A stretch of DNA of 64,000 bases from positions 2,944,001 to 3,008,000 of the forward strand of contig OZ245742.1 in NCBI GenBank assembly GCA_965227295.1. The letters are read 5' to 3'. Positions within the stretch are counted from its first letter, which is position 1. Each line of letters begins with the position of its first letter. The position numbers were made by a program, and so were the translations under genes. This DNA comes from Leptonemataceae bacterium (GTDB lineage Bacteria; Spirochaetota; Leptospiria; Leptospirales; Leptonemataceae). Shown here piece by piece: positions 44,254-57,940 of this stretch. The notes under the pieces were generated by a model. That model had not been told where the DNA came from and did not search any database. It saw only the letters and a list, made by a program, of their open reading frames with translations.

Positions 44254-45216
44254 CACAATTCCGCAACTTACTTCATGTTTCTCACGGCAACGCAACGAAC
44301 CGCAACTCTTGAACTACCGGAAACGCGCGGGTAGTTCGCACACGCCCCGATTCGTGGTGTAAGTAGCGGCCAGTGTACATTAAGGCTTTTATGGGTACGG
44401 CTGGTTCCAGCTGACGAGCGGAGGTCATGCCGGGGATTTTGGTAAGGCGCACCGGAACGGCGTCTTCGCCGTGAGGAACGCTGCGGGAGCTGAGTCACAA
44501 ACCAGCGTCCGGGTCGAGGCGGACTATCTTAACAAAACGACATACCACAACTCCCGCTCAGCCGTAGCCATAAAGATCCCTTCACAATTCCGCAACTTAC
44601 TTCATGTTTCTCGCGGCAACGCAACGAACCGCAACTCTTGAACTACCGGAAACGCGCGGGTAGTTCGCACACGCCCCGAATCCTGGTGTAAGTAGCGGCC
44701 AGTGTACATTAAGGCTTTTATGGGTACGGCTGGTTCCAGCTAACGAGCGGAGGTCATGCCGGGGATTTTGGTAAGGCGCACCGGAACGGCGTCTTCGCCG
44801 TGAGGAACGCTGCGGGAGCTGAGTCTCACAACCAGCGTCCGGGTCGAGGCGGACTATCTTAACAAAACGACATACCACAACTCCCGCTCAGCTGTAGCCA
44901 TCAAAACCCCTTCACAATTCCGCAACTTACTTCATATTTTTTGCGGCAAAGGCAACGAAACGCGGCTCTTGAACTACCGGAAATGTTTCCTTCGTTCGAG
45001 CACGCTCCGAATCGTGGTGTAAGTAGCGGCCAGTGTACATTAAGGCTTTTATGGGTACGGCTGGTTCCAGCTAACGAGCGGAGGTCATGCCGGGGATTTT
45101 GGTAAGGCGCACCGGAACGGCGTCTTCGCCGTGAGGAACGCTGCGGGAGCTGAGTCACAAACCAGCGTCCGGGTCGAGTCGGACTATCTTAACAAAACGA
45201 CATACCACAACTCCCG
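44254..45216 (+). repeat. ~330-bp repeat family, array 5 left part (3 near-identical units, last one interrupted)
   Basis: CACAATTCCGCAACTTAC at 44254, 44583 and 44913 (period 329/330). Confidence 0.97.
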
Positions 45217-45231
45217 TTGTGTAAAGAGAAG
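45206..45231 (+). other. attL: CACAA-CTCCCG-TTGTGTAAAGAGAAG
   Basis: 6-bp core 45211-45216 followed by element arm 45217-45231. Confidence 0.85.
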
Positions 45232-45305
45232 TAAATATAGTAAGTGGAAAAAGCGTGCGTTTTTGGCTTGCCGGTTTCGGTGGCGCGTATATGTCCGCTT
45301 GCTGT

Positions 45306-46298
45306 ATGGAGAAATCAAAAATTGCTAACATTGGTGCCGCGCGACTTAGTGGTCACAGTGTTACCGTTTCCAATTCGGGCTATACGGATTTTACACCGTT
45401 GCTCGGTGAGATCCGTTTTGACGCCCTGCCGGAAATCGCCGGTGCCTGGGATAATGCTAACCGGCACGTCGCCAAACTTAACGCCCGGCACCCGGCGGGC
45501 TTCGGGCTGCTCGAAATTGACGCCTATTTGACCGAATACGCGCACGGGCGCGAGAATGCCACGGTTAAGAACCTCGGTTACGGCCTGCGTAACTCGGTGA
45601 TTCAGGCAATGGGCCTGGACTATCGTTTACACCATGGTAAACGAACCGTCGTGGACGAAACTTTTCGTCCTTATGTCACGCTGAAACCGCGCAAGGCCCG
45701 GCGACCGGTGCCGTCGCCGCGCGAAATCATGCGCGTCTTTGTGAGCGCCCGGCCGCGCGTCGCCTCCGTCGTGGAGATTCTGTTTCAAACGGGGCTGCGC
45801 ATCTCGGAACTCTGCAATCTGAAGATTTCCGACTTTGACCCGCAACCGACCGAGGACGGCACCGGCGTCGTCTTCCGCGTCAAGAACAAGGGCGGCGACA
45901 TCAAAGTCGTCAAGATGCGTCTGGCCACCTTCGAACGCGCCGTGAAGGCTTTTTACGGCTGTGTCTATCTGATCGAAAGCCGTCCCGGTAAGAAGTACTC
46001 GCGCCAGGGCCTGGCCGACCTGGTCAAGTGCGGCACGCGGCGCGTGCTCGGTCGCGCCTATCCCCCGCACAGTCTCCGGCACGCTCACGCCGATTACATG
46101 ATGGCGAACCATCCCGGTAAGCTTAAGGGCATCCTGGACAACGGGGGCTGGGCCAACGCGGAAGTGTTTATCAGCACTTACAATCATGTGCAATTGAACG
46201 TCGCGGATCTGCCGTCCCTGGACGATATGGCGGAGACGATGAACGCGCAGGCACAACCGCAGAAAACGCGGCGCGGGGACGGGCGACGCAAAGTCTAA
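45306..46298 (+). CDS. Tyrosine recombinase / integrase
   Basis: ILFQTGLRISELCNL (R), KNKGG (K), PHSLRH (HxxR), GGW, STY (Y); start uncertain (45255-45306). Confidence 0.9.
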   Translation: MEKSKIANIGAARLSGHSVTVSNSGYTDFTPLLGEIRFDALPEIAGAWDNANRHVAKLNARHPAGFGLLEIDAYLTEYAHGRENATVKNLGYGLRNSVIQAMGLDYRLHHGKRTVVDETFRPYVTLKPRKARRPVPSPREIMRVFVSARPRVASVVEILFQTGLRISELCNLKISDFDPQPTEDGTGVVFRVKNKGGDIKVVKMRLATFERAVKAFYGCVYLIESRPGKKYSRQGLADLVKCGTRRVLGRAYPPHSLRHAHADYMMANHPGKLKGILDNGGWANAEVFISTYNHVQLNVADLPSLDDMAETMNAQAQPQKTRRGDGRRKV

Positions 46299-46322
46299 GT
46301 TTGTACGCGTAGAGGTTAAATC

Positions 46323-47096
46323 ATGCTGACTTTTTCCGTGAAACAGTTTCAGAAAGAAGCCGCGCGCATTCGCGAAGAATACGGCGGGGATGCGCGCTTT
46401 CGTCTGAAGATTCACCGCGCCGGTATGGAATCGGTGGAACTGCATTCGACCGATCTGCCGGAACTCGAACCGGGCGAATACACCGTCGAACTCGCGGCGA
46501 AAGCGCCCGGTGAAAAGGAATGGACGCGGGTATTTTCCGGCAAGATTCACCGGCCGTTACACGGAAACAGTAGTGCCGCGCGTAACACGCTCAAACATTC
46601 CGACGGGGGCGCCGTGAACGGCGGCGCCTCCGCGGGCAACGGTGCCGCGGAAAGCCTTGTTCTCGATCGCGCGTTTGCGTATCTCGAAAAGATCGAAGGC
46701 AAATTCGACGAAGCACAGCGCATCCGGGACAGCGCGGCGACGGCGTCTCTTGATATGACGATTCAATCGCTCAAAGGCGCGTTTTCCGCGGCCCTGGACG
46801 AAATTGTCCGCGCCCAGGATCGTTCTGTCGATCGGCTGCGCACCGAACTGGACGACACGATTAAGAGTTACGAACGCCGCTTCGAGAAACTCCAGGAAGA
46901 GCACGAAGACGACCGGCGTCGCTGGCAGGAGAAAAGCGCGGCGGACAACACGACGCCCGGCGAGCGGATGCTGGAACGCGGTATCCAGTTAGGCGAGAAG
47001 ATCTTAAGCAACCTTGATAAAATCAAAATGCTGACCGGCCAGGGTGTACCGCCCACCGCGGCGGCGTCCGGCCCGGCCAGAAGGGGACCAGTTTAA
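46323..47096 (+). CDS. Hypothetical protein with coiled-coil C-terminus
   Basis: GAGG upstream; charged helical C-terminal half; stop overlaps the next start. Confidence 0.7.
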   Translation: MLTFSVKQFQKEAARIREEYGGDARFRLKIHRAGMESVELHSTDLPELEPGEYTVELAAKAPGEKEWTRVFSGKIHRPLHGNSSAARNTLKHSDGGAVNGGASAGNGAAESLVLDRAFAYLEKIEGKFDEAQRIRDSAATASLDMTIQSLKGAFSAALDEIVRAQDRSVDRLRTELDDTIKSYERRFEKLQEEHEDDRRRWQEKSAADNTTPGERMLERGIQLGEKILSNLDKIKMLTGQGVPPTAAASGPARRGPV

Positions 47097-56556: not shown

Positions 56557-56648
56557 GCTCCGTCCTCAGTAGAGAGCAATTTTCTTGACCTTTTCTCCGT
56601 ATCGGATCGTCTGTCCTCTATGAAGAGCACTTCAAAGGAGGTCCGCAA

Positions 56649-57020
56649 ATGCGCGGGGACATATCGATCAACAACCAAACCGTCCACGGCGTCCGCTTGC
56701 TGACGTACAATGAGGAACCGGTCATCGGTATCCTGTACGGCACGGTCGGAATCGTCGTGGAAATCCACACGGGGCAGGTGAACGAGGACGGCCCGGAGCC
56801 GCTCGCGATACTGCTCAGTGCGGGCATACGAGTCGTAGAGGATTATTTCCTCATCCGGGGCTACCAGCGAACGGGGCGCGACCGATACGACCAGGACCGG
56901 TATTTCAAGCCGGGCCAGGCGCACGAATCGGCCGTCGTCCGGTTCTACCCGTACGGCACGGAAGACACAAAACGCTGGCTGGAACGAATCCAGCGGGGAG
57001 GTACCGATGATACGCGGTAA
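56649..57020 (+). CDS. Unknown-family protein, paralogue 1 of 3
   Basis: AAGGAGGT RBS; RGYQRTGRD..QAHESAVVRFYPYG. Confidence 0.8.
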   Translation: MRGDISINNQTVHGVRLLTYNEEPVIGILYGTVGIVVEIHTGQVNEDGPEPLAILLSAGIRVVEDYFLIRGYQRTGRDRYDQDRYFKPGQAHESAVVRFYPYGTEDTKRWLERIQRGGTDDTR

Positions 57021-57345
57021 GATGCGTCTGGAAGATCGCACGGAGCAAGTCTATCTGTGCATGTACAGTGAGGCACCGAACGAGTACACGTCGTACGTCG
57101 CACACGATACGGTTGCCGAATTTCTGAGGAGGGACGGCAAAAATTTGGCGCCGGTTACACTGTTATTCGGCGCCTCGTTGCGGGTGTATGATCGGGAGAT
57201 GATCATCCGGGGCTTTCGCCGGAGCGGTCTGGACCGAAAGGATTACACCAATCACCTCAAGCCGGACCAGGAGCATCAAAGTGTGATTGTGCACTTTGTC
57301 CCGGACGGTGCGGACGAAACGGAGGACGAAGACGATGCGCGGTGA
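57007..57345 (+). CDS. Unknown-family protein, paralogue 2 of 3
   Basis: GGAGGT RBS; RGFRRSGLD..QEHQSVIVHFVPDG. Confidence 0.8.
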   Translation: MIRGKMRLEDRTEQVYLCMYSEAPNEYTSYVAHDTVAEFLRRDGKNLAPVTLLFGASLRVYDREMIIRGFRRSGLDRKDYTNHLKPDQEHQSVIVHFVPDGADETEDEDDAR

Positions 57346-57706
57346 CATGCTCATCAATGGTCGCCGATACGCGGGCGTCTACCTGCTGCTGTATAACGAG
57401 CAAACGGGGATCCAGGGCGACGTCGGGTCCATCGGAGCGGTAGCGGAAATCCACATACGCCGCGGCACGGATGATTACTATCCGGTGGCGGTGTTGATCG
57501 CCGCACAGGCGCGTGTGGTCAACGGTTGCCTGACCCTGCGGGGCTTCTTTCGCTCCGGCCAGGACCAGGAAGACGGAAGCCTCTGTCTACTGGCGAACCA
57601 GACGCACCGGTCAGCGGTGATCGAGTTTACCCCGTACGGCCCGGACGACCAGGACGAACGGGAACCGCACATGCACCAGTTGAAGCAGGAGGACGACACA
57701 GAATAG
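57335..57706 (+). CDS. Unknown-family protein, paralogue 3 of 3
   Basis: GGAGG RBS, ATG 57335; RGFFRSGQD..QTHRSAVIEFTPYG. Confidence 0.8.
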   Translation: MRGDMLINGRRYAGVYLLLYNEQTGIQGDVGSIGAVAEIHIRRGTDDYYPVAVLIAAQARVVNGCLTLRGFFRSGQDQEDGSLCLLANQTHRSAVIEFTPYGPDDQDEREPHMHQLKQEDDTE

Positions 57707-57909
57707 TGCTTGTGTGCATCGGGTGAATACGTAAGATACTACCCGAAACCAAAAATTTTATTGGAGGATGGACACAACGCGCCACCGAAACGACAGGCAA
57801 ATCGGATTTCGATAAGAATCAGACTTGCAACCGGCCCCGGCCGATGTAAGATACTGACCAACGGAATCTAAAAAAAGCACTCTTAACGATCTTACCGCCG
57901 AAATGGCAC

Positions 57910-57940
57910 CTTTTCTTTACACAACTCCCGCTCAGCCGTA
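57910..57940 (+). other. attR: CTTTTCTTTACACAA-CTCCCG-CTCAGCCGTA
   Basis: Element arm 57910-57924 is the reverse complement of the attL arm (14/15); core 57925-57930. Confidence 0.85.

Follow-up and report, generated by a model that had tools for sequence, protein, structure and literature searches.

What carried a 12.7-kb island into the middle of a single repeat unit, and whether the repeat itself served as its point of entry, are the questions raised by a locus in the genome of a Leptonemataceae bacterium (Spirochaetota; assembly GCA_965227295.1). We analyzed a window of 64,000 nt, corresponding to positions 2,944,001–3,008,000 of contig OZ245742.1; all coordinates below are those of this window, and features lie on its plus strand unless stated otherwise. 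The island interrupts the third unit of an array of ~330-bp head-to-tail repeats, and its first gene encodes a tyrosine recombinase (integrase). We consider it likely, with good though not complete confidence, that the island entered by conservative site-specific integration through this recombinase of its own, a Cre/Xer-like enzyme. An initial annotation of the locus had already described it as a tyrosine-recombinase element that uses a multicopy chromosomal repeat as its attachment site.

A repeat unit split by a 12.7-kb island

Read directly, the sequence at the left junction runs ...ACATAC, then the 11-bp core CACAACTCCCG (45206–45216), then TTGTGTAAAGAGAAG, and that at the right junction runs CTTTTCTTTA, then a second copy of CACAACTCCCG (57920–57930), then CTCAGCCGTAGCCATAAAGATCCC. 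Both copies were also retrieved by a core search. The left one, at the attachment site attL, comprises 5 bp of a left half-site followed by the 6-bp spacer CTCCCG, and the right one belongs to attR. This 11-bp direct repeat at the two ends of the insert is a segment of the uninterrupted target, through which intact paralogous units read without a break; two such units, adjacent to one another at 44334–45001 (cores at 44546 and 44876) and delimited by sequence and profile, stand in for the empty site. With one core copy included, the insert measures 12,714 bp (45217–57930).

The last 71 nt through the left core are identical at 70 of 71 positions to the unit at 44546, the 30 nt starting at 57925 are identical (30/30) to the intact unit at 44551–44580, and the first 150 nt past the right core match the unit at 44876 at 131 of 150 positions. 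A profile hidden Markov model (HMM) of the unit, covering 339 positions in 14 aligned units, matches 44994–45219 with its positions 2–227 (E 5.5e-75) and 57920–58045 with its positions 214–339. Because these two matches cover the profile in this way, the flanking pieces constitute one unit, with its core duplicated and nothing lost. The left piece of the interrupted unit, delimited by the profile match and the 70/71 identity, spans 44994–45216, and the right piece, followed by the terminal partial unit of the array (profile positions 2–40 at 58038–58076), spans 57920–58076. Direct reading and the unit profile together confirm that an array unit is split by a 12.7-kb insert at 45216/57920, as the initial annotation had proposed.

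The repeat forms six arrays, all intergenic, that together occupy 6,128 nt, or 9.6%, of the window, and a region this rich in repeats lends some color to the view that the junctions are an artefact of assembly. However, both junctions fall at the same 11-bp core within a unit and are joined there to unique sequence carrying matching inverted arms, whereas a collapse or chimera would have its break where units are homologous to one another and would not make a palindromic site. An artefact is therefore scarcely credible in our estimate.

The arms in question are 15 bp long, with TTGTGTAAAGAGAAG at the left end of the island (45217–45231) and CTTTTCTTTACACAA at the right end (57910–57924), and they are reverse complements at 14 of 15 positions. 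In an arm search allowing up to two mismatches they were the sole matches in the window, against 0.08 expected, and by our own arithmetic at least 14 of 15 matches at a fixed register have a chance of about 4e-8. When the island ends are joined on paper, the two inverted arms flank CTCCCG, so that the architecture previously claimed for the recombination site of the free element (attP), namely 15-bp inverted arms with one mismatch around a 6-bp spacer, is upheld, with arms that are unique in the window. The target shares with the left arm the spacer and a further 5 bp (CACAA), and its right side, CTCAGCCGTAGCC, is unlike the arm.

Formally, the same junctions can be read as 15-bp terminal inverted repeats with a 6-bp target duplication (CTCCCG), the mark of a transposon mobilized by a transposase acting in trans and carrying the integrase as cargo. 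Yet neither a DDE, HUH or other transposase nor a second recombinase family was found in the element with Pfam, PHROGs and NCBIfam. Moreover, the five extra bases, CACAA, that the target shares with the arm are expected of a half-site, and the integrase stands by the site at the extreme end of the island; an integrase next to its attachment site is the usual layout of integrase islands. We hold a transposon origin to be very improbable.

Under site-specific integration, the ends of an excised circle would abut as two 15-bp arms around CTCCCG, forming the attP core, and one pair of integrase molecules would bind both arms of this circular form. A second pair would bind the CCACAA half-site of a repeat unit together with its weak right half-site, the chromosomal site attB being CCACAA-CTCCCG of one ~330-bp unit with a degenerate right half-site. 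Strands would then be exchanged 6 bp apart across CTCCCG, splitting the unit and giving as products attL and attR, both with CACAACTCCCG and with a single arm of the island. The sequence shows the junctions, the arms, the restored unit, the domains and catalytic residues of the integrase and the gene content; every step of the reaction, including catalysis by this enzyme and the cleavage positions, is a prediction.

Further repeats lie just inside the arms. A subterminal inverted repeat, perfect at 15 of 15 positions, has its left copy, GTTTCGGTGGCGCGT, at 45268–45282 and its right copy, ACGCGCCACCGAAAC, at 57777–57791, and is a candidate site for accessory proteins. Toward the right end, GTAAGATAC is present in two direct copies (at 57731 and 57846; 57731–57854), accompanied by an inverted GTAAGAT at 57889–57895, again as candidate accessory sites. 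Lying within ~200 bp of the ends, the 15-bp repeat and the GTAAGATAC copies would probably bind accessory proteins, and by their sequence they resemble the accessory-protein sites of a complex attP spanning ~270 bp. The subterminal repeats and two helix-turn-helix (HTH) proteins of the island are candidates for contributing to intasome assembly and directionality.

The integrase and the cargo of the island

The integrase gene (45291–46298) is intact, is the first gene of the island and starts 75 bp inside attL. The list of open reading frames (ORFs) had opened it at a GTG (45255), and its homologue P0002, at 50% identity, aligns from the methionine at 45291; from this ATG the protein has 335 aa. 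It matches PF00589 with 50.9 bits against a cut-off of 27.1 (E 2e-13) and, among the PHROGs, the integrase family phrog_1 (E 4e-17). Numbered from the ATG at 45291, the catalytic residues are R170, K200, H260, R263, W287 and Y297; across 16 aligned relatives the R, K, H, R and Y are invariant and the W is conserved in at least 90%. With all six residues in place and PF00589 above its cut-off, the earlier description of the first gene as an R-K-HxxR-W-Y recombinase is borne out.

An AlphaFold model computed from the 16-sequence alignment has a mean pLDDT (predicted local distance difference test) score of 83.7. Compared with the PDB using Foldseek, it had its best fold matches in the Cre chain 1crx_A (E 3.2e-8, ~305 aligned columns), XerA, XerH, IntI, Tn1549 Int and lambda Int. 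As modeled, the integrase is a two-domain Cre/Xer-like enzyme, with a core-binding and a catalytic domain and no confidently modeled arm-binding domain. The subterminal repeats near the island ends are the candidate arm-type sites for it.

Within this superfamily, membership of the better-known families was excluded, as the scores fall far below the cut-offs. Against the NCBIfam models for Xer equivalogs the integrase scored 46 versus 220 for XerA_Arch, 35.4 versus 329.6 for XerD and 30.7 versus 335 for XerC, and it is accordingly not a Xer dimer resolvase. Nor is it an integron integrase, with 25.9 versus 265 for TIGR02249, a model that includes the IntI-specific insertion, and 20.4 versus 435 for PRK15417. 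A genuine XerD-type recombinase (373 bits, cut-off 329.6) is encoded elsewhere in the window at 18888–19793, 1 kb from a repeat array; this is the host's own enzyme, unrelated at the family level to the island integrase.

Close relatives of the integrase are few. A HMMER search of 1.84 billion representatives returned 878 hits at E ≤1e-3 and five at E ≤1e-30, one of them exceeding 35% identity, and a word-based protein search recovered P0002 as the single close homologue. The phage and plasmid collections hold integrases of 24–28% identity only. Best hits to Leptospira and Brachyspira in such comparisons give no more than weak hints to the affiliation of the host. The DNA of the island had no match in the plasmid collection or in 50,697 phage records, and that of the repeat unit had none in the plasmid collection. 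Judged from these sequence collections, the integrase clade is rare.

The island has a GC (guanine plus cytosine) content of 0.568, lower than that of every window of the same size in the remaining sequence (0.593–0.607). We scanned the 12 to 13 element proteins with Pfam, PHROGs, NCBIfam and PADLOC. These scans revealed no relaxase, coupling protein or type IV secretion system, and no replication, packaging, virion (capsid) or defense-system family, in agreement with the earlier statement that the island has no relaxase, Rep or capsid gene. Genes typical of a prophage or satellite (capsid, terminase, portal, tail or primase-replication) are likewise absent from the island. Its PHROGs matches are limited to the integrase, regulator-type families and one family of unknown function, with a terminase match confined to the HINT region of the toxin-like protein described below. 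The island is without transfer machinery of its own, and to spread it would depend on transformation, on a helper element or on the flanking repeats as substrates for homologous recombination.

This gene content also suits a different history, in which the island did enter site-specifically but is now an immobile relic or passenger, moved at most by homologous recombination via the arrays after transformation; the multicopy repeat would then matter as homology and not as an integrase target. The absence of transfer, replication and packaging genes fits such a history, as do the ~1 kb of repeat to the left of the island and ~150 bp to its right, which could serve that purpose. A relic, however, should show decay, of which the integrase, the arms and the core copies bear no trace, and the direct repeat is without mismatch. 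We think this history improbable and favor an integrase that may be active at present.

The largest gene of the island (49199–54730) encodes a polymorphic-toxin-like protein of 1843 aa, recognized by TIGR04388 and the pretoxin domain PF07591 (PT-HINT). It consists of a hydrophobic N-terminus, a TIGR04388 trunk (residues 34–722, 362 bits against a cut-off of 45), a pretoxin HINT domain (residues 1453–1573, 60.5 bits) and a C-terminal tip of 269 aa. For this tip, searches of Pfam, the PDB and sequence collections returned zero relatives, and its single-sequence fold had a pLDDT of 42. The next gene (54727–55155; 142 aa, GC 0.47) overlaps the toxin stop by 4 nt and is, from this position, the probable immunity gene. 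The pair is assigned, on sequence, as a putative polymorphic toxin and its partner from this arrangement: a PT-HINT domain, then a variable C-terminal domain, then a short ORF that overlaps the toxin gene. Over 53519–55155 the GC content is 0.50 for HINT plus tip and 0.47 for the 142-aa ORF, against 0.60 for the trunk. Such a fall in GC over the HINT-plus-tip segment and its adjoining ORF is what exchangeable toxin-immunity tips usually show, and it suggests that the tip was recently swapped.

Leptospira plasmids carry relatives of the TIGR04388 trunk at 26–31% identity, each followed by a small overlapping gene. These TIGR04388/PT-HINT systems share with the island locus the trunk, the HINT domain, a low-GC tip, the small overlapping gene and the gene order; the locus described here differs in having a C-terminal domain without detectable relatives and in riding on an integrase island. 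Our literature search found no published report on TIGR04388.

The remaining cargo is small. Behind the integrase lie a gene for a 257-aa protein (46323–47096) with no family in Pfam, PHROGs or NCBIfam, for which all atlas leads scored below 0.9, and one for a 113-aa protein (47096–47437), its start overlapping the stop of the former, with no family above cut-off. They are followed by a 202-aa protein with a hydrophobic N-terminus, a GC content of 0.47 and no family (47854–48462) and, on the minus strand, a LuxR/GerE-type HTH regulator (48497–49039; PF00196, 36.4 bits against a cut-off of 23.5). Beyond the toxin locus come a 224-aa hydrophobic protein with no family in Pfam or NCBIfam (55322–55996) and an XRE/Cro-type HTH protein (56071–56556; PF01381, 24.2 bits against a cut-off of 23), whose HTH covers residues 108–155 and whose real start probably lies further downstream. 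The last three genes (56649–57706) are tandem paralogues encoding small proteins of 123, 112 and ~119 aa, the latter two 34–37% identical to the first, with 25 invariant columns, a common RG..R.G.D motif and acidic tails; they belong to no family in Pfam, PHROGs, NCBIfam or PADLOC.

The repeat family and its core hairpin

The six arrays lie at ~2227–2540, 16598–17809, 24421–25204 (inverted), 40747–42589, 44252–45219 with 57920–58126 (the array that holds the island, its left part also delimited as 44231–45216) and 60351–61338. We treat the repeat as non-coding because ORFs within the units have no Pfam family and the units differ from each other by 1-nt indels. No tRNA or tmRNA was found in the target repeat. 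Rfam gave zero matches over the whole window at gathering score and merely two weak, unrelated ones over 40600–45300 at E up to 1. A promoter scan found three sites against 1.7 expected, which is uninformative.

Exact copies of CACAACTCCCG number 10 in the window; at up to one mismatch, 11 matches were listed against 1.17 expected, a count that none of 100 shuffles reached. The seven further intact cores reported earlier are all present, at 24507 and 24943 on the minus strand and at 40822, 41541, 41936, 44546 and 44876. An additional exact copy at 22113–22123 (minus strand) is situated outside the arrays, in unique sequence with long open frames across it; chance probably explains this copy, which is still a potential secondary site. 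The 16 units with a core region comprise seven with an intact CTCCCG, six with an intact CTCCGA(AGAGCC), two carrying a 60-bp insertion and the one interrupted by the island.

Tyrosine recombination requires identity in the overlap region, and since a mismatch in the spacer would be expected to block strand exchange, the CTCCGA units should be poor targets. The view of the locus as a site-specific tyrosine-recombinase element seated in a repeat therefore stands as far as the 12.7-kb element, the recombinase at its edge, the attP arms and the shared spacer are concerned, but it has to be narrowed in its reach, as only seven of the 13 intact unit cores share the targeted spacer, the remaining six having CTCCGA. 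Within these bounds, the repeat family may offer the integrase multiple landing pads, with other units as potential targets.

The 60-bp insertions (41157–41216 and 42272–42331) are located exactly between CACAA and CTCCCG and have no duplicated core. Each forms two hairpins, one a palindrome, GGACATGTCC, and the other a stem of 12 bp with a UUCG loop on the minus strand. The insertion point coincides with the left edge of the spacer at which the island is joined. Such an insertion may represent an apical part of the hairpin that varies between units, or else the trace of another event at that spot. More generally, the units are modular, with strongly conserved blocks alternating with optional hairpin insertions. 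A long-hairpin module of ~81 bp is present in some of them (16711–16834, 17515–17640 and equivalents near 60600–60660 and 61100–61160) and lies between two direct copies of a 22-bp stretch of the unit, GGCGGACCGGAACGGCGTCTTC, which agree at 21 of 22 positions in the first case; this arrangement resembles a small insertion that duplicated its target. Another module, the third, has two hairpins and ~70 bp and occurs at 41785–41850, at 24640–24715 and in the array at 60.4–61.1 kb.

Units also appear to have traded parts. Two 4-nt spacers occur to the left of the core, AAAT and CATA, and each is paired with both right-hand types, CCGCTCAGCC and CGAAGAGCC; as all four left/right combinations exist, left and right halves have been exchanged between units in the core or close to it, which could reflect gene conversion or site-specific exchange. 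Ordinary recombination could produce such mosaics, and to that extent they are also in keeping with an immobile passenger flanked by homologous arrays. They bear equally on the idea that the recombinase mainly serves the arrays, recombining core with core as in an integron or shufflon, the 12.7 kb being DNA trapped between two cores. For that idea speak the mosaic units, a core common to many units and the 60-bp insertion exactly at CACAA/CTCCCG in two of them. It is hard to reconcile, however, with arms (TTGTGTAAAGAGAAG and CTTTTCTTTACACAA) that occur at the island ends only and in no unit, with an island that has a composition of its own and with the integron-integrase score far short of the NCBIfam cut-off (25.9 against 265), and we give it very little credence. 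A reading of the core itself as an integron attC site was rejected by eye, because the sequence departs from the RYYYAAC/GTTRRRY motifs.

Read from the minus strand, the region around the core forms a hairpin, GCUACGGCU-loop-AGUUGUGG, with a U-rich stretch behind it, and a terminator scan flagged it in four units; within this hairpin, the CCACAA-CTCCCG motif supplies the 3' side of the stem and some of the loop. Its folding energy on the minus strand is −10.4 kcal/mol for the CTCCCG type and −11.8 kcal/mol for the CTCCGA type, which has a UUCG loop, compared with −1.1 and −1.0 kcal/mol, respectively, on the plus strand. Pairing is kept in 79 of 80 cells across the 13 intact units (10 of them distinct), with G-U at three of the eight consensus pairs. 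At the three pairs that vary, a single side changes and pairing is retained, and no double compensatory change occurs among the 13 intact units; a shuffle control of the pairing is without power because the 3' side never varies. The consensus fold of the whole unit has a slight minus-strand preference (−36.8 versus −30.4 kcal/mol), and in one inserted hairpin a G-U pair is, by eye, consistent with the plus strand.

The hairpin at the core is conserved and folds only when read from the minus strand, so that the units may be functional RNA genes. The initial annotation had called the landing sites harmless; in view of this hairpin and of a possible RNA function of the units, that description goes too far. 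A bolder proposal can be formulated on this basis, which we put forward as tentative and rather unlikely: the units would be undescribed genes for a structured RNA on the minus strand, and their terminator-like hairpin (GCUACGGCU...AGUUGUGG with its U-rich tail) would serve as attachment site for Cre/Xer-like integrases of a rare clade. A genome with hundreds of these hairpins would then permit insertion at many loci, and recombination between cores could build and shuffle arrays, in parallel to the role proposed for the enzyme of the Nf1 phage with its dRS3 repeats.

Several observations count against site-specific integration. Only a single insertion of this island is visible in the window. 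The right half-site of attB is unlike the arm, making the site weaker than dif or loxP. In the integrase, residues 1–31 are left unmodeled (pLDDT below 50) and no extra folded domain is seen, and among the island genes no excisionase was identified. A repeat signature of 28 specified bases, invariant in the window copies, gave zero matches in a collection of one genome per species covering 185,579 species. In the same genomes, an integrase pattern derived from a 5-sequence alignment yielded 33 candidates, of which one was confirmed, at 23% identity; this relative (L001), from an Anaerolineales metagenome-assembled genome, is too distant to inform.

Apart from the island and the arrays, the window contains two adjacent genes for paralogous giant signaling proteins of ~2000 aa each (26249–32266 and 32279–38371), with Ser/Thr kinase, AAA_16, GAF, Hpt and HATPase_c domains and with DNA 70–84% identical over long listed stretches.

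Multicopy attachment sites and the meaning of the island

Site-specific integration by a two-domain recombinase, as we propose it for the island, invites comparison with Cre/loxP and with XerCD or XerH and dif, which likewise pair a two-domain recombinase with two inverted arms around a short spacer, of 6–8 bp in such sites generally and of 6 bp in the island. The island system departs from these in several respects: its Xer scores are far below cut-off (35.4 against 329.6 for XerD), its chromosomal partner has one good half-site only, the additional repeats close to the core point to an attP of greater complexity, and the enzyme would, on the evidence of the sequence, mobilize a 12.7-kb island instead of resolving dimers.

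The premise that such elements usually target single-copy sites, on which the initial annotation had based its contrast, proved too strong, as ICEclc, Nf1/MDA and phiRv1 all use multicopy targets. The integrase of ICEclc is one that we take to be of the tyrosine type. Elements of the ICEclc type encounter several tRNA-Gly copies per chromosome, any of which may serve as target (PMC13393423). They are conjugative and insert at a tRNA 3' end, whereas the island lies in a ~330-bp unannotated repeat, with no tRNA and no Rfam match, and no transfer genes were found in it.

The enzyme of Nf1 is presumably a transposase of the Piv/IS110 type and not a tyrosine recombinase. The neisserial Nf1/MDA phage is described as using a subtype of dRS3, a short inverted-repeat motif, in intergenic (neisserial intergenic mosaic element, NIME) arrays, with ~300 copies, and its enzyme is proposed to recombine dRS3 repeats with one another (PMC3898611). 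The likeness extends to a restriction of targeting to some copies, those of one subtype there and the seven of 13 intact cores here; the differences are that Nf1 is a filamentous phage with a 20-bp repeat as target, compared with an island and a ~330-bp repeat. The prophage-like element phiRv1 of Mycobacterium tuberculosis lies inside a REP13E12 repeat and uses a serine recombinase (PMC9317374). The two cases share integration within a multicopy chromosomal repeat and differ in the class of recombinase, serine for phiRv1 and tyrosine here.

Hairpin-forming extragenic repeats as targets are also shared with IS1397 and IS621. These insertion sequences target hairpins of repetitive extragenic palindromes (REP) and bacterial interspersed mosaic elements (BIME), and they are ~1.5 kb long, encode DDE or DEDD transposases and carry no cargo. 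The REP13E12 repeat, for its part, has few and long copies. No published report of a tyrosine integrase targeting REP-type repeats was found in a search of the openly accessible literature.

Multicopy attachment sites as such are thus already known, with tRNA-Gly for ICEclc, dRS3 and REP13E12 as examples, and what is new here is that an integrase of a rare Cre/Xer-like clade, a toxin-carrying island of minimal content and a hairpin target in an undescribed and very abundant repeat occur together. The repeat family is the less expected and more puzzling feature of the locus, more so than the island itself, and merits a separate study. The island, for its part, is an example of a minimal integrase element serving as the vehicle of a polymorphic toxin-immunity module. 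If the integrase accepts any unit of the CTCCCG type, a single genome would offer it very many neutral or near-neutral docking sites, and islands could stack, shift between loci and seed rearrangements; the enzyme would then represent a compact Cre-like recombinase with a natural multicopy target.

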